The notes below the pieces were generated by a model that did no database searches, was not told the DNA's origin, and saw only the letters and a list, made by a program, of their open reading frames with translations. Shown piece by piece: positions 9,670 through 24,201 of a stretch of 24,201 nucleotides of DNA. Positions within the stretch are counted from its first letter, which is position 1. Every line of letters starts with the position of its first letter. The position numbers were made by a program, and so were the translations under genes. Source of the DNA: a virus (Duplodnaviria; Heunggongvirae; Uroviricota; Caudoviricetes); the IMG/VR virus record IMGVR_UViG_2778261666_000010; one strand, written 5' to 3'.

Positions 9670-11421
9670 ATGATTCAGGACGCTTTTGTGCGCCAGCGTG
9701 CGCGACAACTTTACTGGCAGGGTTATCCGCCCGCTGAAATATCACGTCTGATGGGAATAAACCCGAACACGATTTATGCGTGGAAAAAACGCGACCAGTG
9801 GGATGAAACGCCACCCGTGCAGCGTGTCACGCAGTCCATCGATGCGCGCCTCATCCAGCTTACTGAAAAACAGAATAAAACAGGCGGTGACTTTAAGGAA
9901 ATAGACCTGCTGACCCGGCAGCTTAAAAAACTGCATGATGGCCAGCCGGATGCGACGGCCACAGGAAAGAAAGGCCGGGCGAAAAAACTCAAAAATCATT
10001 TCACGCCGGAACAGATTGCCGCACTGCGGGAAAAAATCATCAGCAGGCTGGAGTGGCATCAGCGGGGCTGGTTTGACTCCCTGACCCTTTGCAGGGAAGC
10101 CGGGATACGTAACAGGATGATCCTGAAATCCCGACAGATTGGGGCGACCTGGTATTTTGCACAGGAAGCACTGCTGATGGCGCTGCGTGACGATGTGGCG
10201 CAACCTTACCAGCGTAACCAGATTTTTTTGTCTGCGTCGCGTCGTCAGGCGTTCCAGTTTAAAAGCATTATTCAGAAGGCCGCGGCTGAAGTTGATGTGG
10301 AGCTGAAAGGGGGCGATAAAATCATCCTCTCCAACGGCGCAGAGCTGCATTTTCTCGGCACTTCTGCTGCGTCGGCACAGTCCTATACGGGCAATTTTTA
10401 TTTTGATGAATTTTTCTGGGTCAGTCGCTTTGCTGAACTGCGCAAGGTGGCTGGCGCTATGGCAACCCTCAGCGGACTGCGGCGCACCTACTTCTCCACG
10501 CCATCCACCGAAACGCACGAGGCATACGCCTACTGGAACGGCGACCGCTGGAATGAGAAAAAGGCCTCGCATAAACGCCAGCGTTTTTCTGTGGACTGGA
10601 AAACGCTGCATAACGGGCTTATCTGCCCTGACCGGACGTGGCGGCAAATTGTCACGCTGGAAGATGTGGTTAATCACGGCTGGAAACACACTGATATCGA
10701 CGAAATTCGTGATGAAAACACCGAAGACGAGTTCCTCAATCTCTATATGTGTGAGTTTGTCCGCGAAGGGGAATCGGCATTTAACCTGAATATCCTGATT
10801 GGCTGCGGTGTTGACGGATACGACGACTGGAAAGACTGGAAACCTTTTGCTCCCCGCCCGATGGGGAATCGTCCGGTATGGATTGGGTATGACGCAAACG
10901 GCAGTAGTGGCAACGGCGACAGCGGCGCTGTGTCCGTGGTGGTTCCTCCGGCTGTTCCTGGTGGCCGTTTTCGAACGGTGGAGACGCGACGCGTTCAGGG
11001 GCTGGAGTTTGAAGAACAGGCCAGAGTCATTGAAGAGTTCACGTATCGCTACAACGTGGAACACATCGGCATTGATGTGACGGGCGGGAACGGGGAGGCT
11101 GTTTATCAGATAGTGAAACGGTTTTTCCCTGCTGCTATTCCGTACACCTTCACGCTGTCATCAAAACGGTCGCTGGTACTGAAAATGCTGCAAATAATGC
11201 GTGCCGGGCGGTGGGAATACGATCGCGCCGAACGCGAGCTGGTCGCGGCCTTTAACGCCGTGCGTAAGGTGAAAACACCGGGCGGCTTTATCACTTACGA
11301 AACGGACCGCGCGAGGGGGATCAGCCACGGCGACCTTGCGTGGGCAACCATGCTTGCTGTCATTAACGAACCGATTGGCGGCGAAGGAGAAAACGAGCGT
11401 TTCACGGTTATGGAGTTCTGA
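9670..11421 (+). CDS. P: Terminase large (ATPase) subunit (P2 gpP-like)
   Basis: 583 aa; ATG 9670 preceded by GGGGGAG; N-terminal HTH-like segment (YWQGYPPAEISRLMGINPNTIYAWKKRDQWDE); stop overlaps the portal start. Confidence 0.9.
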   Translation: MIQDAFVRQRARQLYWQGYPPAEISRLMGINPNTIYAWKKRDQWDETPPVQRVTQSIDARLIQLTEKQNKTGGDFKEIDLLTRQLKKLHDGQPDATATGKKGRAKKLKNHFTPEQIAALREKIISRLEWHQRGWFDSLTLCREAGIRNRMILKSRQIGATWYFAQEALLMALRDDVAQPYQRNQIFLSASRRQAFQFKSIIQKAAAEVDVELKGGDKIILSNGAELHFLGTSAASAQSYTGNFYFDEFFWVSRFAELRKVAGAMATLSGLRRTYFSTPSTETHEAYAYWNGDRWNEKKASHKRQRFSVDWKTLHNGLICPDRTWRQIVTLEDVVNHGWKHTDIDEIRDENTEDEFLNLYMCEFVREGESAFNLNILIGCGVDGYDDWKDWKPFAPRPMGNRPVWIGYDANGSSGNGDSGAVSVVVPPAVPGGRFRTVETRRVQGLEFEEQARVIEEFTYRYNVEHIGIDVTGGNGEAVYQIVKRFFPAAIPYTFTLSSKRSLVLKMLQIMRAGRWEYDRAERELVAAFNAVRKVKTPGGFITYETDRARGISHGDLAWATMLAVINEPIGGEGENERFTVMEF

Positions 11422-12467
11422 TGAGCAGAAAAAACAAAAAAGTGCGCATGAGTTCACGCATTGATCTCGCTGATGCGCTCAGGAAAGAATCATCGCTCAG
11501 TGCATTCACATTTGATGGTCCTTATCGCCTGACCGGGCATGACCTGCTGGACAATATGTACTGTGCTGATAACGGGCGGTGGTATGAAACCCCGGTGGAC
11601 TGGTACGGTCTGGCAAGAGCAGCCCGGCAAACGTCCTGGCATCAGTCTGCGCTTTACTTTAAGCGTAATGTATTGCTCGGTTGCTATATTCCGCACCCGC
11701 TGCTTTCCCGGCAGGATTTCTCGGCGCTGGCGCTGGACTGGTTTGTGTTCGGTAACGCATTCCTTGAGCTTCGAAGCAATATGCTCGGCGAACCACTTAA
11801 ATTACGGCACACCCTGGCGAAATACATGCGACGCGGAAGCGATCTTGAATCATGGTGGTATGTGCAGGATGGCAAGGACGCGTTTCAGTTTCGCCCTGGC
11901 AAAGTGTGCCACCTGATGAATCCTGACATTAACCAGGAAATCTACGGCATGCCGGAATATCTCGGCGCATTACTCTCGGCCAGCCTGTCTCATTCGGCGG
12001 ACATGTTCAGAAAACTGTATTACGACAACGGCTCCCACGCCGGGTGCATCATCTACATCGGTGCAGCGCAGGTAAACCGCGAAAGCATGGACTCCCTGAA
12101 GGAAACGCTACAGGGTGCGCGTGGTGGTGGTGCATTTAAAAACGTGCTCATTCATGCGCCCAACGGGGGCAAAGAGGGGGTGCAAATTTTGCCGTTCCAG
12201 CAGATCACCGCAAAGGATGAGTTCATGAATGTTAAGGCGGCATCCCGTGATGATGTGCTGGCTGCGCACCGCGTTCCGCCGCAACTGATGGGGGCGATGC
12301 CGGGCGAAAAAAGTGCGTTTGGCGATGTGGAGAAGGCAGCGCGGGTTTACGCAATTAACGAGCTGATGCCCGTCATGGAGGCTATGAAGCACATCAATGA
12401 CTGGCTTGGCGAAGAGGTGATCCGTTTTAACTCTTATGCTCTTCTTGATGAAAAAACAGCCCCGTGA
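11421..12467 (+). CDS. Q: Portal protein (P2 gpQ-like)
   Basis: 348 aa, close to the 344 aa I recall for P2 Q; immediately downstream of the terminase, as in P2. Confidence 0.9.
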   Translation: MSRKNKKVRMSSRIDLADALRKESSLSAFTFDGPYRLTGHDLLDNMYCADNGRWYETPVDWYGLARAARQTSWHQSALYFKRNVLLGCYIPHPLLSRQDFSALALDWFVFGNAFLELRSNMLGEPLKLRHTLAKYMRRGSDLESWWYVQDGKDAFQFRPGKVCHLMNPDINQEIYGMPEYLGALLSASLSHSADMFRKLYYDNGSHAGCIIYIGAAQVNRESMDSLKETLQGARGGGAFKNVLIHAPNGGKEGVQILPFQQITAKDEFMNVKAASRDDVLAAHRVPPQLMGAMPGEKSAFGDVEKAARVYAINELMPVMEAMKHINDWLGEEVIRFNSYALLDEKTAP

Positions 12468-12483
12468 TGGGGCTGTCCTTTTT
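12456..12483. terminator. Bidirectional intrinsic terminator shared by convergent portal (plus) and orf174a (minus)
   Basis: 8-bp stem ACAGCCCC/GGGGCTGT (12456-12463 / 12469-12476) with loop GTGAT. Followed by a T-run on the plus strand (CCTTTTTA) and preceded by an A-run, giving a U-tract on the minus strand too. The portal stop lies in the loop; the orf174a stop lies in the T-run. Confidence 0.65.
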
Positions 12484-13006
12484 ACCAGAGTTGAACCATT
12501 TTCTGGGTGCCGTCAGGCTTGAGATTATCAATTTCAGAGAGAACGTAATATTGAATGGCTTCACAAACGGTGGTGTAGGGTGAATTACCTTCTTTAAGTG
12601 GCACGATATTATTATTAACGCGAACCTGTATTTCATCGTTATACATTGCGATCGAAACAGGAGTGTGCACGAACGCGACTTCGCCAGGTGTGTCGTCAAC
12701 CACCGTTTCAATACTAAAAGTCAGTTTTCGCTCATCATTGCTGCCCCGTGCTTTGGGGGTAGCGGCAGGGATCTGGGATAAAGGCATTCTGCGAAATCCT
12801 TCGGCTGCTTCCAGTCCGCATGAAACGTAATGCTGGCGATTACCGTCGCTATCTGTCCAGGTCTGTGATGGCAGCTCCAGCGAGATTTCATAAGCATCAA
12901 CAATGCCCTGGGCAAGGCGTACAAGCGGGGTCAGATCTTCATTGCGGCGAAAGCTCTCCTTTACCTGCTCCCGTTTTTCTCTTAACTGCTTGTAATTAAT
13001 GACCAT
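12482..13006 (-). CDS. Hypothetical protein (174 aa), accessory gene next to the portal
   Basis: Track start 13045 is GTG; ATG 13006 has a perfect GGAGG 7 nt upstream (MVINYKQLREKREQ...). Ends at the shared terminator. No motif I recognise. Visibly more AT-rich than the flanking structural genes. Confidence 0.6.
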   Translation of the reverse strand: MVINYKQLREKREQVKESFRRNEDLTPLVRLAQGIVDAYEISLELPSQTWTDSDGNRQHYVSCGLEAAEGFRRMPLSQIPAATPKARGSNDERKLTFSIETVVDDTPGEVAFVHTPVSIAMYNDEIQVRVNNNIVPLKEGNSPYTTVCEAIQYYVLSEIDNLKPDGTQKMVQLW

Positions 13007-13108
13007 AAAACAGCCTCCATTGATTTCTTTGCTCGTATTTTGCACTTATGAAGTATGGTCGGCAAGGTGCCGTATCGCTGACGCGCTTCGCTTGTCTGCT
13101 GCTTCGCC

Positions 13109-13131
13109 GGGGCATAAAAAATTTATGCCCC
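13109..13131. other. Perfect 10-bp-arm palindrome/hairpin
   Basis: GGGGCATAAA-AAA-TTTATGCCCC, about 100 bp upstream of the orf174a start; no flanking U-tract on either strand. Confidence 0.4.
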
Positions 13132-13505
13132 GACTCTCCAGCTCCTGTATCAATCAGATAATTTCACGACGCCTTCCAGCTTATTGTCATCATCGACGGT
13201 CAGGCTCTTACGCAATCCCGCCGTGCTGACTGCATGTTCTCGTCGCCTCAGTGCGATTTTGACGGCCTTATCAGTCACCCCATCAAATCAAAAGCCCTCA
13301 CGTATTTTTCACGCTCAGCGTGAGAAAGACAGCCATTCTGTTGTGTCGCTGCGACATCGTTCAGGGAATGCTATTTACCCCCTGAAACGCGGGCTGTTCC
13401 CCCGTCACCTGCGCGCAGAAAAAACGCGTTTTTTTGTGCACGCACGGATCCTTGACGGATCCAGCCGCCACGGGGGCCGGAAGGGCAAAAAGTCGTTCAA
13501 AAAAA

Positions 13506-13532
13506 TTGTGCAAATTTGTGCACTATTGTGCA
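13506..13532. repeat. Three TTGTGCA direct repeats at exact 10-bp phasing
   Basis: aTTGTGCAaatTTGTGCActaTTGTGCAgc, copies starting at 13506, 13516 and 13526 in non-coding DNA; helical-phase iterons suggest a protein-binding array. Confidence 0.5.
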
Positions 13533-13572: not shown

Positions 13573-14097
13573 TCAGGTGTTCTTTTTACCTTCTGTCAGT
13601 GGGCATAACCATCCACTATTTACATCACTTAGCTGATGCGTTCTTTCCTCGTGCTTCTCCTGCCACAATGCTTTTCCGCCAGCCTTTATGATGGCTCTTT
13701 CAACATCCCGCTCGTATCGCAAGGGCTGAAATACGTTATTAATGAAATATTCGCTTATGTCCGGAAGCAATACTGCAAAATTATTGGTTTGTTGCGCCGT
13801 TCGGCTATGCAGCAAAGCGGCATACTTTAATGCGTCCTGTGCTTTCTGGAATTTCAGTGCATGGTCAGTGGCGATTTTTTCCAGTTCAGCGATCCTGTTG
13901 TCTTTGGTTTCCAGCTCTTCCAGCAGCTCGGCGATAATGTCCATTTCCTGATGACGGATTTGACGCTTAAACGCCGCCACTGCTTCGCTACAATCCTGCT
14001 CAGCATTTGGGTTATCCGTGATGGCCTCATACCACGCCAGCGTCGATTGATAGTTTTGTGCTGCCTCACGTAATGCCTGATAGTTGATTTCGCTCAT
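13573..14097 (-). CDS. Hypothetical protein (174 aa), predicted alpha-helical/coiled-coil, downstream of parR
   Basis: ATG 14097 with AAGGAG upstream; a hairpin (14135-14152, CAGGGCGAACTCGCCCTG) separates it from parR; no recognisable motif. Confidence 0.6.
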   Translation of the reverse strand: MSEINYQALREAAQNYQSTLAWYEAITDNPNAEQDCSEAVAAFKRQIRHQEMDIIAELLEELETKDNRIAELEKIATDHALKFQKAQDALKYAALLHSRTAQQTNNFAVLLPDISEYFINNVFQPLRYERDVERAIIKAGGKALWQEKHEERTHQLSDVNSGWLCPLTEGKKNT

Positions 14098-14160
14098 TAT
14101 GTCGTTCTCCTTGTTTATGTTCTGAGGTGGAGAGCAGGGCGAACTCGCCCTGATGTTGTG

Positions 14161-14472
14161 TTATTCAGGAAATAACGCCCTGATATTTCTGGCCATCTGA
14201 CTGGTTATCTGTGCGGTTGGTACTGGCTGTGACTCGGGGCGTTCTGTCCTGGTTTGTGTCACTGATAACGTCTCATCGTCAGCCCATGCAGCCAGTCGGT
14301 AAGCCTCTGCCGGATTCATTTTCAGAAGTGCCAGCCCGGCCAGAAAAGCCACGCGTTGGCCGCTTTTGCGAGCTTCTGGTGTAAGGCTGTCCAGCCAGGC
14401 GCATGCTTCACCTTCGTTCTTGACGGCGGCGGGTTTCAGATAGAAACTTATCCGTCTGGTTGGTGTCGTCAT
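14161..14472 (-). CDS. parR: ParR-like centromere-binding adaptor (partition protein)
   Basis: Start moved to ATG 14472 (MTTPTRRISFYLKPAAVKNEGEACAWLDSLTPEARKSGQRVAFLAGLALLKMNP...), with AAGGAG upstream and overlapping the parM stop. Resembles the N-terminal ribbon-helix-helix region of plasmid R1 ParR (...RTIAFKLNPD...LDSIP...RAALTAGLALY...) from memory. The track's 45-residue N-terminal extension overlaps parM. Confidence 0.65.
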   Translation of the reverse strand: MTTPTRRISFYLKPAAVKNEGEACAWLDSLTPEARKSGQRVAFLAGLALLKMNPAEAYRLAAWADDETLSVTQTRTERPESQPVPTAQITSQMARNIRALFPE

Positions 14473-14476
14473 TGGT

Positions 14477-15436
14477 TTACTCCTTGTCCATTGCGTACAG
14501 CCCATTAACCAGAGCAAACTGTGGCACCCCGTCCGCGATGAAAGTCGCATTAACTCCGCAGGCTTCGCGGATAGCGGGTGCCACAATCTCCGCCCCGCCA
14601 CCGACAACCATCACCCGCCCGTAACCCGAAAAACCCGCCAGCGCGCGGATCACGCGTTGTTTCAGTGTTTCTTCCTTTTCACGAATAACCGCCATCAGGC
14701 TGGCGTAATGCGCGTCATTGTGGATGTGCTGGCGCAGCCAGGCTTCATCATGGCGATGTTCGATAATGGTATTGGCGATGTGGTGACTGGTACGCATACC
14801 GTTAGTGGCCATCACCGACAGTACGGCATCGGCCATCAGGGAAACGCCTACGTGTGGATCGCAAAACACCTGGCTGATACCTGCCAGTTGTCCCTGAACC
14901 TTTGCCACATCCAGCGTGGTTCCGCCCAAATCCACAATCAGCAGGGATTCAAACGGACTCATGTCAGCCAGTGCCTTAAAGCCAGCCGGAATGGATTCAG
15001 GCATAACCCGTACATTACGGATAGTGAATGCCTTACCGTTCTGGTACTCCACCGGGCGCATGACGTTCGCTTTTTTGCGGTTGATGTTGGCCATGTCCGG
15101 CTGTGCGTTTGTGTCGAAATACTCGCTCAGTGGCAGGGTGACAACCACATCCACTTCCTGTGGTGTGATGCCTGATTTGACCAGCGCGTGATGAATGGCA
15201 ATTACATTCACATCGCTGTACTGGTATTGCGTGTCGGTCGTCTGGACAAAGCGATCGCTGACCGGATCAAAACCATAGCGCACGCCATCAAGCATGTAGT
15301 TCGCGGGCTGCATGCCACCGAACGGCGCAGACCATTCCGATTTGAAGCTGTTCGGGCTGATGGCGTTGCGGCGTTCGCCGTTCTCAGTCCATGCCAGCTT
15401 GATGTTGGTGGAGCCGTCGTCGATACAAATTTTCAT
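14477..15436 (-). CDS. parM: ParM/StbA-like actin-type segregation ATPase
   Basis: 319 aa, collinear with plasmid R1 ParM as I recall it (MKICIDDGSTNIKLAW..ISPNSFK..YSDVNV..HHAL..RKKAN..VMPESIPAG..DLGGTTLD..GVSL..GGGAEIV..LVNG), including phosphate-1, phosphate-2 and adenosine motifs of the actin fold. Confidence 0.85.
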   Translation of the reverse strand: MKICIDDGSTNIKLAWTENGERRNAISPNSFKSEWSAPFGGMQPANYMLDGVRYGFDPVSDRFVQTTDTQYQYSDVNVIAIHHALVKSGITPQEVDVVVTLPLSEYFDTNAQPDMANINRKKANVMRPVEYQNGKAFTIRNVRVMPESIPAGFKALADMSPFESLLIVDLGGTTLDVAKVQGQLAGISQVFCDPHVGVSLMADAVLSVMATNGMRTSHHIANTIIEHRHDEAWLRQHIHNDAHYASLMAVIREKEETLKQRVIRALAGFSGYGRVMVVGGGAEIVAPAIREACGVNATFIADGVPQFALVNGLYAMDKE

Positions 15437-15468: not shown

Positions 15469-15580
15469 TTACGGGATTTTTAAATCCCGCTTTTGCCTGT
15501 TTTGTGCGCGCTTCATATTTCGCGGCGCTTTTTTTGCTCATTTACGGGATTTGTGAATCCCGTTTCTGTCTGTTTTTTGT
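15469..15580. repeat. Two ~38-bp direct repeats, each with an internal hairpin and T-rich tail, straddling the gene A stop and the parM upstream region
   Basis: Copy A 15469-15506 (TTACGGGATTTTTAAATCCCGCTTTTGCCTGTTTTGTG) and copy B 15542-15580 (TTACGGGATTTGTGAATCCCGTTTCTGTCTGTTTTTTGT); copy B lies inside the last ~23 codons of gene A. Confidence 0.6.
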
Positions 15581-18335
15581 TCCCACGGGTCAGGCCACCC
15601 CGCAGCAGGTCTGCTTTGCGGTGGGCGCGTTCAGTGGTTTCACTGATTCTCTGTGCGTGCTCTGCGTCACGGATGGCGCGCAGCATGTCAGAAAGCACGG
15701 TAACGGGTGTCTTCATGGTGTTCTGGTCTTGCTGAAGTGTGGATGCCAGGCGTGCGGCGGCTTCGGGGTCTGATGCCCCTAGCTGTTCCAGATAGCTGGC
15801 GACCGGGTTATGGCGGATCTCCGTGCTGCTTACGCCGTGATTACGGCTCAGGCGCTGCCAGAGCTGCGTGATTCGGCTGTCCGGTCGGGTATCTGGTTTG
15901 CGTACAATTTCAAATCCCTGCGGTGCAATGATGCTGCCGTCAACGTACAGACTGCCGCCCCGTAACAGGTGCAGCATCTGTTGTTCACCGATATGCAGGC
16001 CGAGAGATTCGGCAGACTCCCGCCATTCTTTAGCGAGTAACTCGTGGTTATCAGGCAAAGGTCGCGGCTGTTTGCGGCTCTGTGTCCAGTTCTGCATTTC
16101 ATCGCTGCTGTTTTTTGCCTGTTTGTCACGAAGCGAACGCATCAGCGCCCGGCGTTCGTGCCGTTTCAGTGAGCGCATCCATTCATTTACTTCAACGCCG
16201 TCAGGAAGCTGCGGCCACGGTGCTGGCCGTTCTTCCGGCTGTTCTGTTCCGTTGTTGTTCGTTTCCTGTACACGGGGACAGTTATTGCCACGAGTCCAAG
16301 GGGCGGCAGGGCCGCCCTGAAGGTCAAAACCATTTTCGCGGGCGCTGTCTTCCGCTTCCGGTTTACGCCTTACCAGCTTCCAGTTATCCGGGTGCGTGCA
16401 CACGCGGGAAGACTCCCCGATGAGCGGCGACCAGATCCCGTAAATCTGTACACTCTGCTCGCCGTAATCGTTCAGTTCATCTGCGAGGTCGTAGGCGGTG
16501 CGAATCAGGTAGTCTTTACGTGGAACAAGTACGCCGCCCTGTTTTTCAATGTAGGAGGCAAAACACCCGGCATCGGCGGCAGCGAGTACCGCATCCATTG
16601 CGTCATCCTTCAGCCGTTGCGGGCCTTCCGGGTTGCGTGCCATCTGGCTGGCAAGGCGGCGCAGTTCACGCCACACCTGACGGGAGGGGATGCCAAAGAA
16701 CTGGAACTGGCGGACCCGATGAAGGCGCGCCCAGCCGATGGCGCGCTCCACGCTCTCGGCCATTGATTTTCCGGTTTCGTGGTCAACGCGTGGTTTGCCC
16801 GTTTTCGGGTCGATTCCATCCACGGCGCGGCTGTCCAGGTTTTTTCCGATGTAGGTGGCGATGTAGCTGGTTGGCGTGCCTTTGGAGCCGTCGACGTACT
16901 CCACCTTAAAGCGCGGAGTAATATCATTGCCCAGCTCGTGGCGGTCTTCCTGAATGGCAATATCGCGGGTGATGGCCACGATGCTGTCGATTTCTTCTGG
17001 ATGAGCAAAGACCATCATATGCCAGTGCACGGTGCCGTCATGGTGAGGCTCCACCGTGCGGATGCCATACCAGCGCAGGCCGTCGCGGTTCAGTTTCTTG
17101 CGGACCGCCGCAAAAAACGTGTTAACCAGGTAATCGCTGGAGTCGCGCATGGTGGCCCCGTTCCATTTGGGATTCGGATGACCGTTCTCTGTTGTGGCGT
17201 GGTATTTTGACGGGCAGGTGACAGTCAGAAACACCGCTTTGTCGCCACGGGCTTCGGCTAGAAGTTCCAGCCCCTTCATGGTGGCCATCATTTCTGCCTT
17301 ACGGTGAACCGGGTTACTTACTCCCGCGTAATACACTGTCTCAAGATCAATCGTGAAGCCGTCTTCGTTTTCCAGTTCGAAGCTCTTCAGGAAGTCGCGG
17401 GTTTTCTCGCGCTGTGCGCGAAACTCGCTTAACGCGTCCTGGCTCAGATAGGGTGATGTTTTTCTGGAAACCAGACAGGCGGCACGGAGCTGTTCTTCCC
17501 GCCACTCGCAACGTAAAAGCCACAGTTTGTGTTTCCACCATTCCGCACAGGTCAGGCGAAGGATGGCACCCGGCAGCAGCTCCGTATTCAGTGCGTTCTT
17601 CCGGTCTTTGTCCGTTCTCAGTGCTTCGTAATGCGGCGGCATGGTGTGCAGATGTAACGCCATGCGGGCCAGCATCTGATACGCCTTCAGCGCAATTTTC
17701 ATGGTCAGCTCGCCATCGGTCGCGCCAAAGTTATCGCAGAGTGTTTCGAAAGTGCTGCTGAACATCGCCGCCGTCATGGTGGCCAGCGTCTGTATCTGGT
17801 GTTTGTTGAGCTGCGGCAGGTAAAGCAAATCGTCCAGGCGTTCGCGTCCGGCAAGGGAGCAATAACACGGTGTCAGCCAGCGTCCGTCAGTGCGATCCAG
17901 ACGTTCGAATATTTTGCGCAGGGTTCCGCGTGCATAGCGTTCCGCCTGCCAGCTCTTTTTGCCTTTCCGGCGATCGGCTTCCTGTTTTTTGCGCAGGAAG
18001 GAGAGGTGGCGAATAAGCGGATCGCGCAGATAGGACGGCAGCAGGCGGAGCGAGGCCATGGCTTCATCCACCGCGCCGCGTGCCTGTTTTCTGGCGTCTC
18101 CTGTCAGTGTGATGGTTTTGTCCTGTTTTTCCTGTGCGTCCAGGCTTTTATTAATCAGGTTGCCCAGCGGCGTGGCGGAGAACGCCGCATCAGCCATTTC
18201 CTGGCGGCGCTCGTTCTCTGCCCGGTAGGCATCCAGCCAGGAGGAAAGCGCGGATTCAGGAGCGGGGATCCCCGTTCCTTCACGCCCCACTGCGTGGCGC
18301 GGTTGTTGCCAGTCCCTGATGTACTCTGCCGTCAT
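15513..18335 (-). CDS. A: Replication initiation endonuclease (P2 gpA-like, rolling-circle HUH family)
   Basis: 940 aa, ATG 18335; metal-binding motif EPHHDGTVHWHMMVF and downstream tyrosine region (...TSYIATYIGKN...). Longer than the ~761 aa I recall for P2 A. Confidence 0.85.
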   Translation of the reverse strand: MTAEYIRDWQQPRHAVGREGTGIPAPESALSSWLDAYRAENERRQEMADAAFSATPLGNLINKSLDAQEKQDKTITLTGDARKQARGAVDEAMASLRLLPSYLRDPLIRHLSFLRKKQEADRRKGKKSWQAERYARGTLRKIFERLDRTDGRWLTPCYCSLAGRERLDDLLYLPQLNKHQIQTLATMTAAMFSSTFETLCDNFGATDGELTMKIALKAYQMLARMALHLHTMPPHYEALRTDKDRKNALNTELLPGAILRLTCAEWWKHKLWLLRCEWREEQLRAACLVSRKTSPYLSQDALSEFRAQREKTRDFLKSFELENEDGFTIDLETVYYAGVSNPVHRKAEMMATMKGLELLAEARGDKAVFLTVTCPSKYHATTENGHPNPKWNGATMRDSSDYLVNTFFAAVRKKLNRDGLRWYGIRTVEPHHDGTVHWHMMVFAHPEEIDSIVAITRDIAIQEDRHELGNDITPRFKVEYVDGSKGTPTSYIATYIGKNLDSRAVDGIDPKTGKPRVDHETGKSMAESVERAIGWARLHRVRQFQFFGIPSRQVWRELRRLASQMARNPEGPQRLKDDAMDAVLAAADAGCFASYIEKQGGVLVPRKDYLIRTAYDLADELNDYGEQSVQIYGIWSPLIGESSRVCTHPDNWKLVRRKPEAEDSARENGFDLQGGPAAPWTRGNNCPRVQETNNNGTEQPEERPAPWPQLPDGVEVNEWMRSLKRHERRALMRSLRDKQAKNSSDEMQNWTQSRKQPRPLPDNHELLAKEWRESAESLGLHIGEQQMLHLLRGGSLYVDGSIIAPQGFEIVRKPDTRPDSRITQLWQRLSRNHGVSSTEIRHNPVASYLEQLGASDPEAAARLASTLQQDQNTMKTPVTVLSDMLRAIRDAEHAQRISETTERAHRKADLLRGGLTRGNKKQTETGFTNPVNEQKKRREI

Positions 18336-23139: not shown

Positions 23140-23208
23140 CTCTACACATTGAGCGAATTACATATCGCAAGGAGTGTTTAGTTAATTTATCCGTTGGAGG
23201 GGCTAATC

Positions 23209-24201
23209 ATGTCGATTAAGCAACTCAAAGACGGACGTTATCAGGTCGATGTCAGACCGCAGGGGGCGGAAGGAAAGCGGATTCGAAAAATCTTTGCCCT
23301 GAAATCAAAGGCTCAGGAGTTTGAGAAGTATGTGTTACAGAACTTTCATGACAAGCCATGGCAGGCTAAGCCAGCTGATCAGCGGCGATTATCAGAGCTG
23401 CTTGACGCGTGGTGGATGCTTGATGGGCGTAATCAGGCTTACGGGGATAGCTACAGGGTTAGGCTAGGGAAGGTTGTTCGTGAAATGGGAGATCCTCGCG
23501 CCAGTCAGATGACGCGAAAATTTATGCTTGAATATCGGTCAGAGAAATTACAGGCCGGATTAATGCCGTCCAGTATTAATCGTGACTTATGCGTACTGTC
23601 TACCATGTTCACGGTGCTGATTGAAGCTGAGGTCTTTCACAACGCGAACCCTGTACGCGGTATACGAAAACTGAAAGTTCAGAACACAGAGATGGCCTTT
23701 CTTTCTGATGATGAGATTGAACGGCTTCTTGAGCGACTGGAGGGTGATGCGCGTCGTGTTGCCATTCTGTGTCTTTCTACTGGTGCCCGATGGAGTGAAG
23801 CATCGGAACTACGTGGAGAGCATATCGTTGGCAACCGGGTGACGTTCTTTAACACCAAAAACGGAAAATCCCGTTCGGTTCCTGTGGCGGATTCGGTCGT
23901 GCCTCTGATTAAAACCCGTCGAACGGGGTTATTGTATCAGGTTGATTATCTGAAGTTCCGGGAGATTCTTCAGGAGGTGAAACCGGATTTGCCGAAGGGG
24001 CAGGCTACGCATGTCATGCGTCATACGTTTGCCACACACTTTATGATGAATGGCGGAAATATTGTTACGTTGCAACGAATCCTGGGGCACGCAACGATTC
24101 AGCAAACAATGACGTACGCTCATTTTTCGCCGGACTTTTTACAGGACGCGATCAACTTTAATCCGCTGGCTGAAAGTGTCCATAAACTGTCCATCGATTA
24201 G
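23209..24201 (+). CDS. int: Tyrosine integrase (P2 Int-like)
   Basis: ATG 23209 preceded by GGAGG; C-terminal catalytic region ...HVMRHTFATHFMMNGGNIVTLQRILGHATIQQTMTYAHF... with the R/H/Y signature; stop is the last codon of the window, so attL/attR should lie just beyond it. Confidence 0.9.
   Translation: MSIKQLKDGRYQVDVRPQGAEGKRIRKIFALKSKAQEFEKYVLQNFHDKPWQAKPADQRRLSELLDAWWMLDGRNQAYGDSYRVRLGKVVREMGDPRASQMTRKFMLEYRSEKLQAGLMPSSINRDLCVLSTMFTVLIEAEVFHNANPVRGIRKLKVQNTEMAFLSDDEIERLLERLEGDARRVAILCLSTGARWSEASELRGEHIVGNRVTFFNTKNGKSRSVPVADSVVPLIKTRRTGLLYQVDYLKFREILQEVKPDLPKGQATHVMRHTFATHFMMNGGNIVTLQRILGHATIQQTMTYAHFSPDFLQDAINFNPLAESVHKLSID

Follow-up and report, generated by a model that had tools for sequence, protein, structure and literature searches.

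An Ead/Ea22-like accessory gene in the variable slot downstream of parMR of a P88-like prophage

Genes and features of the locus

The window analyzed here is a stretch of 24,201 nucleotides from a Caudoviricetes virus (IMG/VR record IMGVR_UViG_2778261666_000010), which megablast places among the P88-like phages (Xuanwuvirus, Peduoviridae, P2 family) and their prophages. A near-identical prophage of E. coli HCM-28C-2 carries integrase, repressor, cox, early genes, gpA, parM, parR and an ead/Ea22-like gene and continues, in inverted orientation, with the portal, terminase and structural genes. The gene of interest follows parR on the minus strand and lies between gpA and the portal gene. The features of the locus are collected in Table 1.

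Table 1 Features of the locus and modules of the Ead/Ea22-like protein (positions are those of the window)
Feature	Position	Strand	Residues	Basis or remark
Portal gene (gpQ homologue), right hotspot border	11421..12467	+		Portal in every annotated relative; PF04860 in relatives
Conserved 455-bp block ending the cargo slot, presumed cos-proximal	13078..13532	.		91-97% identical in all relatives, whatever the cargo
Ead/Ea22-like family gene	13573..14097	-	174 aa + stop codon	ATG start; ORF list, PF13935, NCBI name
Predicted disordered tail	13576..13653	-	149-174	pLDDT <50; close relatives only
Small α/β C-terminal domain, core motif FxVxLP..EYFI..VFQPLRYERDVERAIIKAGG	13654..13797	-	101-148 (motif domain ~105-148)	
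Coiled-coil core LLEELETKDNRIAELEKIATDHALKFQKAQDALKYA	13798..13926	-	58-100	Inside AlphaFold2 helix; heptad register
Swappable variable module	13927..14061	-	13-57	Alternative modules in homologues; best PHROG match phrog_16519, E=3e-18
N-terminal family signature MSEINYQALREA	14062..14097	-	1-12	Likeness to λ Ea22; conservation
Spacer between parR and cargo, 63 bp	14098..14160	-		Hairpin 14135-14152; Shine-Dalgarno AAGGAG 14107-14112
parR (Plasmid_stab_B), backbone, not cargo	14161..14472	-		PF10784 E=5e-25; phrog_2515 partition protein
parM (actin-like segregation ATPase), backbone	14477..15436	-		PF06406 E=6e-82, PF21523 E=1e-68
gpA replication endonuclease, left hotspot border	15513..18335	-	940 aa	PF05840 E=3e-129

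A first-pass annotation of the window had listed this open reading frame as an unknown coiled-coil protein. Strand, ATG start and length of 174 aa were as described (the end coordinate takes in the stop codon, giving 174 codons plus stop). The word unknown was wrong at the family level, since the protein matches PF13935 (Ead/Ea22) at 58.4 bits, well above the cut-off of 27 (E=1.5e-15), and NCBI holds the identical sequence as "MULTISPECIES: ead/Ea22-like family protein [Escherichia]" from 57 contigs. In the Pfam alignment, residues 2-116 cover positions 1-133 of the 139-position profile, against which λ Ea22 reaches 100.9 bits. Homologues number 326 at E<=1e-3, and those named by their sources are called ead/Ea22-like. 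The identical protein is recorded in 97 blocks of the assembly collection, always positioned after parR and in P88-like prophages. On the strength of the Pfam match, these 97 blocks and the NCBI name, the reading frame is a real gene and not a chance ORF. It is an already annotated phage accessory gene of the Ead/Ea22 family, an ordinary and already catalogued feature.

Other databases were less informative. NCBIfam returned no significant family for the protein, and a search of the 5027 PADLOC models gave no significant match (best E-value 0.005), which leaves it outside the recognized anti-phage defense families. A toxin-antitoxin reading was considered and rejected, as this is a single gene with neither a partner nor a match to a toxin family.

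Several features of the backbone deserve a record of their own. The Phage_GPA domain of GpA covers only residues 179-503 in Pfam, and the C-terminal ~430 aa have no family match. Just upstream of parM, a 38-nt direct repeat occurs in two copies (15469-15506 and 15542-15579; 84% identity, 73 bp apart), one on either side of the gpA stop codon. Each holds the palindrome CGGGATT-N4-AATCCCG, and the pair is a candidate for the parC centromere or for a ParR operator. The ParMR system (14477-15436) is complete, and the P2-like prophage that carries it is integrated in the chromosome and has an integrase and a Cox-type switch (23194-24201); in one sibling locus (L033) the prophage lies beside pdxB. 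For ParMR in integrating P2-like phages, which replicate by rolling circle, plasmid-like maintenance has only been speculated upon by Rousset et al. (PMC9122126), and our literature search for ParM in P2-like prophages returned nothing relevant.

The conserved block that ends the slot opens with three TGCACAA repeats spaced by ~10-11 bp and followed by T7 (13500-13532), and it contains the palindrome AAAAAACGCGTTTTTT (13419-13434). The block is presumably the cos/packaging region, an assignment made by position only because the P2 cos 19-mer was not found when up to 3 mismatches were allowed. In complete E. coli genomes the block adjoins the portal gene, and many of these genomes match nothing else of the query. 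A second slot, present in some relatives and absent from others, lies between the block and the portal gene (12449-13078). In the window it holds a 174-aa ORF on the minus strand (12482-13006; phrog_5091, unknown function, no Pfam match). The same insert, of ~610 bp, occurs in PhiR44_2 and in loci L009, L017, L018, L030 and L031, with most relatives having only 15-21 bp there. The N-terminus of this second ORF, MVINYKQLRE, is faintly similar to that of the Ead/Ea22 proteins; the BLASTP E-value of 0.13 is not significant and the relationship was dropped.

The variable slot downstream of parR

The cos-proximal interval between gpA and gpQ is a hotspot of P2-family phages that holds old and tin in P2 and for which Rousset et al. 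2022 (PMC9122126) described 1,650 gene arrangements across 18,150 loci. They found a putative partition system in the hotspot of about a quarter of P2-like phages. Neither "Ead" nor Ead_Ea22 appears in Table S2 of that paper, which gives the systems evaluated for defense. Flanked by gpA and the portal gene, the Ead/Ea22-like gene of the window occupies this hotspot position.

Comparison with relatives showed that the gene is cargo in this variable slot and is swapped for unrelated genes in syntenic relatives. When the window was compared by blastn with eight annotated relatives, homology ran through parR to its stop codon at 14161 and resumed at 13532. In P88 and PhiR44_2, where the cargos are ClpX-type zinc-finger cassettes, it extended to the cargo ATG at 14095 before breaking. 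The cargos of Shae_phiSM and Chuche are on the opposite strand. Sibling loci were then collected with ParR as the sole query, which gave 80 IMG/VR loci (ParR 94-97% identical) and three loci from the genome collection (87-92%). The latter being too few for a species-level census, the IMG/VR loci were used instead, and the slot was profiled on the 73 loci with both anchors, parR and the conserved block. Their parR-to-block intervals range from 628 to 3715 bp and hold 26 cargo types. An Ead/Ea22 ORF is present in 28 of the 73, and in only three loci is the cargo identical in kind to that of the window. Of 5426 complete E. coli genomes, 1460 gave at least a partial match to a query running from parR to the block, and in 161 the match covered 80% or more. 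Note that two assemblies, one labeled Vagococcus sp. WN89Y (contig of 226 kb) and the other Fredinandcohnia humi (contig of 229 bp), also yielded ParR sequences 92% identical; both loci (L119 and L121) look like contamination or mislabeling.

Some sibling cargos match PADLOC defense profiles, namely IetA (E=4e-89), RmrA-like, AbiLi/AbiLii-like and PDC-M04A (loci L042, L043, L057 and L076), and the IetA-like cargo is followed by a 734-aa ORF. Each of these cargos is either encoded on the opposite strand or begins at a distance of 180-330 nt from parR. In forward cassettes of unrelated families the distance from the parR stop codon to the start is 61-64 nt. Those starting at +64, the Ead/Ea22 and ClpX-zinc-finger cassettes among them, have the backbone spacer and Shine-Dalgarno site in common, which suggests that they depend on transcription from upstream. 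Within multi-gene cassettes the downstream genes overlap by 4 nt. Other cassettes have canonical intrinsic terminators at their 3' junctions, whereas the Ead/Ea22 cassette ends in a hairpin that lacks the U-tract. The first terminator-like site after the gene is weak and is located on the minus strand inside the conserved block (13508-13523).

The first-pass annotation had reported a hairpin-containing spacer of 63 bp and a strong Shine-Dalgarno site ahead of the gene, and both descriptions proved accurate. The spacer is exactly 63 bp, parR ending at 14161; the hairpin is CAGGGCG-AGTT-CGCCCTG, with seven pairs of which six are G-C; and AAGGAG precedes the ATG by 9 nt. For the 91-nt spacer region the folding energy is -19.4 kcal/mol, lower than that of shuffled sequences (z = -3.1). 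Irrespective of the cargo, 94 of 113 loci retain the hairpin after parR, with seven different loops, a compensatory G-C to A-T change of the stem in two loci and, in 13 loci, a C-to-T variant whose pairing is preserved, as G-U, only in the sense RNA. On the coding strand the hairpin lacks a U-tract. As its conservation is independent of the cargo, it may be a marker of, or an attenuator at, the 3' end of the parMR message, and it is probably a functional RNA element of that message, whether as 3' end, stabilizer or attenuator. It may then attenuate rather than permit expression of what lies downstream.

A simple consensus scan (which may miss weak or non-sigma-70 promoters) found no sigma-70-like promoter on the coding strand from gpA to the ORF, and no hairpin with a U-tract terminator was found over the same interval. 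Given that neither a promoter-like site nor a U-tract terminator was seen, co-transcription with parMR is plausible and, judged from the sequence, fairly probable. The first-pass annotation, which had proposed it, had named as contrary evidence a terminator and separate promoter between parR and the ORF together with homology to an unrelated known family. The homology is there, to a family originally known from lambdoid phages; no such terminator and promoter were found.

Architecture of the Ead/Ea22-like protein

The Ead/Ea22-like protein is a five-part mosaic, with module boundaries taken from homologue alignments and from an exhaustive search of 1.84 billion representative proteins. AlphaFold2 gave an overall arrangement of an N-terminal helix, a long helix over residues 32-101 and a small α/β C-terminal domain, in two structure models of moderate confidence (mean pLDDT about 63-64).

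The N-terminus is the part closest to λ Ea22, with 12 of 14 residues identical (MSEINYQALREAA versus MSEINSQALREAA). The signature MSxI[ND]YQALREAA is present, and M1, Y6, Q7, A8 and L9 are nearly invariant among 77 homologues. The variable module that follows is replaced in alignments of the homologues by alternatives that include a 4-Cys zinc-ribbon-like segment and an ATQGEW segment. The stretch encoding residues 5-63 has 84% nucleotide identity to ead/Ea22-like genes of O157:H7 lambdoid prophages.

The coiled coil proposed in the first-pass annotation was borne out by prediction. The long AlphaFold2 helix (pLDDT 72-81) contains a heptad register that is constant over about residues 50-98, and 75% of its a and d positions are hydrophobic. 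Positions L58 and L59 do not vary among the same 77 homologues, and R68, L72 and E73 hardly do. As predicted, the central coiled coil would make up about half of the protein, as expected of the Ead/Ea22 family.

When modeled alone, the C-terminal domain gave a small unit of β, β-hairpin, α and β elements with a core pLDDT of 78-86. Its motif is strongly kept across homologues that are only 46-60% identical overall, and the domain is a rarer module. No Pfam family, PDB sequence match or fold match was obtained for it, and it has no detectable similarity to the solved C-terminal domain of λ Ea22 or to any other solved structure. PDB searches with the whole protein sequence and with the homologue profile returned weak coiled-coil matches only (E>0.3). 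Function could therefore be carried over from λ Ea22, by analogy, through the N-terminal motif and the coiled coil only. The terminal tail is missing from more distant homologues that have the same C-terminal domain.

The closer homologues (60-97% identical) all lie in the same slot, sometimes as two Ead/Ea22 genes in tandem, and truncated or stop-loss variants of 48, 103, 119 or 199 aa occur among the relatives. The GC content of the gene is 44-49% versus 53-58% in its flanks. This low GC and the likeness of residues 5-63 to lambdoid-prophage genes count in favor of a horizontal origin.

Proposed role and comparison with known systems

We hold with moderate confidence that the gene is an Ead/Ea22 accessory cargo gene of the gpA-gpQ slot in a P88-like prophage, that it stands outside the ParMR machinery and that its accessory role resembles that of λ Ea22. 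In the mechanism we propose, the gene would have no promoter of its own and would be the distal gene of a rightward early/replication transcript, gpA-parM-parR-cargo, with some transcription reading through the U-less hairpin after parR and with translation starting from the backbone Shine-Dalgarno site. The hairpin could instead be a functional 3' end of parMR, which counts against read-through. By analogy with the Ea22 proteins of λ and Stx phages, the protein would oligomerize via its long central coiled coil, and the oligomer would present several copies of the exchangeable module and of the small C-terminal α/β domain. These displayed modules may bind a target of the host or of a rival phage. 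Their effect would be on how infection or induction turns out, by way of the choice between lysogeny and lysis or of phage-host conflict, and not on DNA segregation. We infer, on these grounds, an early-expressed oligomeric accessory factor. The location in a defense hotspot favors conflict biology, and the apparent absence of a promoter of its own together with the early-gene precedent of the family favors a role in the infection or induction phase.

Two other readings draw on the same location, and each seems to us rather unlikely. The first is that the gene serves anti-phage defense or superinfection exclusion, being expressed in the lysogen and blocking rival phages like old and tin of P2 and the other cargos of this slot. 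It sits in the gpA-gpQ defense hotspot, siblings have IetA, RmrA, AbiL and PDC-M04A profile matches at the same position, and its rapid module shuffling and tandem paralogues are typical of conflict genes; moreover, ParMR might have a lysogen-active promoter that also drives the cargo. However, no PADLOC model recognized the protein, Ead_Ea22 is not among the evaluated systems of Table S2 (PMC9122126), and the characterized members, Ea22 of λ and of Stx phages, are early lytic genes with a developmental phenotype. The manner of insertion also differs, the Ead/Ea22 gene using the backbone spacer and Shine-Dalgarno site with no terminator of its own whereas recognized defense cargos lie 180-330 nt away or on the opposite strand and have their own intrinsic terminators.

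The second, which we rate no higher, is an early counter-defense (anti-immunity) protein that neutralizes an immune system of the host or of a prophage at infection or induction. Predicted expression with the early operon is consistent with such a role, as is the evolution of the variable region and C-terminal domain, which fits the tracking of a target. According to the OLD preprint, some phages have an EaD/Ea22 protein fused to Oad2, a relative of an OLD inhibitor, and recombination-linked loci of this kind may be reservoirs of anti-immunity proteins. This evidence is purely associative, however: the papers retrieved contain no demonstrated anti-defense activity of an Ead/Ea22 protein, and the C-terminal domain has no known fold.

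The first-pass annotation had left two options for a third gene after parMR, an extra partition component or an independent cargo gene sharing the transcript, and the comparative data favor the second. A third, accessory component of ParMR, for instance an adaptor for, or a regulator of, ParR, ParM filaments or the centromere, would accord with a gene immediately downstream on the same strand, separated by a 63-bp spacer that has neither promoter nor terminator consensus, and a coiled coil could in principle serve as an adaptor. Yet ParMR systems 94-97% identical precede 26 unrelated cargos in the 73 loci, some of them on the opposite strand, and 45 of these loci have parMR with no Ead/Ea22 ORF. 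The same holds for P88, PhiR44_2, Shae_phiSM, Chuche and 520873. Conversely, in a P2-like prophage that lacks parM and parR (L038), gpA is followed by a 143-aa gene that shares a 4-nt overlap with the next gene, an Ead/Ea22 member with the C-terminal domain seen in the window, and the family is widespread in lambdoid phages and prophages lacking ParMR. The GC content and mosaicism are those of exchanged cargo, and Pfam, PHROGs and NCBIfam gave no partition-related match for the protein. The turnover of cargo beside parMR and the presence of the gene where parMR is absent argue against a partition component, a reading that these comparative data effectively exclude. Equally improbable is a decaying or neutral passenger kept by hotspot linkage alone, for although the slot tolerates complete replacement and some relatives have the truncated or stop-loss variants given above, hundreds of contigs have an intact 174-aa frame whose products are 91-100% identical, distant homologues strongly retain the C-terminal motif and the Shine-Dalgarno site is strong.

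Returning to the accessory cargo gene that we favor, a broader generalization can be offered, although we consider it doubtful. The Ead/Ea22 cassettes of the P2-family cos-proximal slot and of lambdoid early operons may form a single modular class of phage conflict factors, in which specificity would lie in interchangeable modules, residues 13-57 and the FQPLRYERDVERA C-terminal domain, mounted on a scaffold of conserved N-terminal motif and coiled coil. Exchange of these modules between lambdoid and P2-like phages would keep pace with targets in the host or in rival phages, in defense or counter-defense. If true, this would give the long-uncharacterized Ead/Ea22 family a function. Ead/Ea22 proteins are common in E. 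coli prophages and have no known molecular target. The main consequence of the present analysis is a correct annotation and the finding is an ordinary one, but the locus shows clearly the module-by-module exchange of the family between lambdoid and P2-like phages. As the slot is otherwise used for defense systems, the gene is a reasonable and cheap candidate for a screen of phage resistance or lysogeny phenotypes.

The closest known system is λ Ea22, which is a tetramer at full length, is transcribed very early from pL, is non-essential and promotes lysogeny; the λ and Stx-phage versions have different C-terminal domains, and no molecular partner was reported (PMC10834534). That paper describes a layout in three parts, in which a long coiled coil stands between a short N-terminal region and a small C-terminal domain of mixed α/β structure, and the architecture of the present protein matches it. 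Both proteins score above the PF13935 threshold, they are near-identical at the N-terminus and of similar length (182 versus 174 aa), and C-terminal domains vary in both settings. Like λ Ea22 and P22 Ead, the present gene would be a non-essential accessory gene of an early operon near replication or recombination genes. It differs from them in that its host element is a P2-family myovirus rather than a lambdoid phage. It follows gpA-parMR next to the presumed cos region, whereas λ ea22 is found in the exo-xis region, and its C-terminal domain is unrelated in sequence to that of λ Ea22 and matches no solved structure.

The cargo of the P2-family gpA-gpQ (old/tin) hotspot is alike in its borders, gpA and gpQ/cos, in its equally extreme turnover and in the defense proteins found at sibling loci. 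Unlike old/tin-type cargo, the Ead/Ea22-like gene matches no known defense family and is absent from Table S2 (PMC9122126). It also appears to have no promoter or terminator of its own, in which it differs both from that cargo and from the other cassettes of this slot.

The likeness to ParMR systems of the R1/pB171 type (parC-parM-parR) is that the upstream genes encode true ParM and ParR homologues and that the present gene is on the same strand and probably in the same transcript. It departs from them in having no homology to partition proteins and no co-variation with parMR. Canonical type II ParMR systems are complete with two genes and a centromere. Annotation should not list the Ead/Ea22-like gene as an additional part of ParMR, and the parMR of this prophage stays a normal two-gene system.
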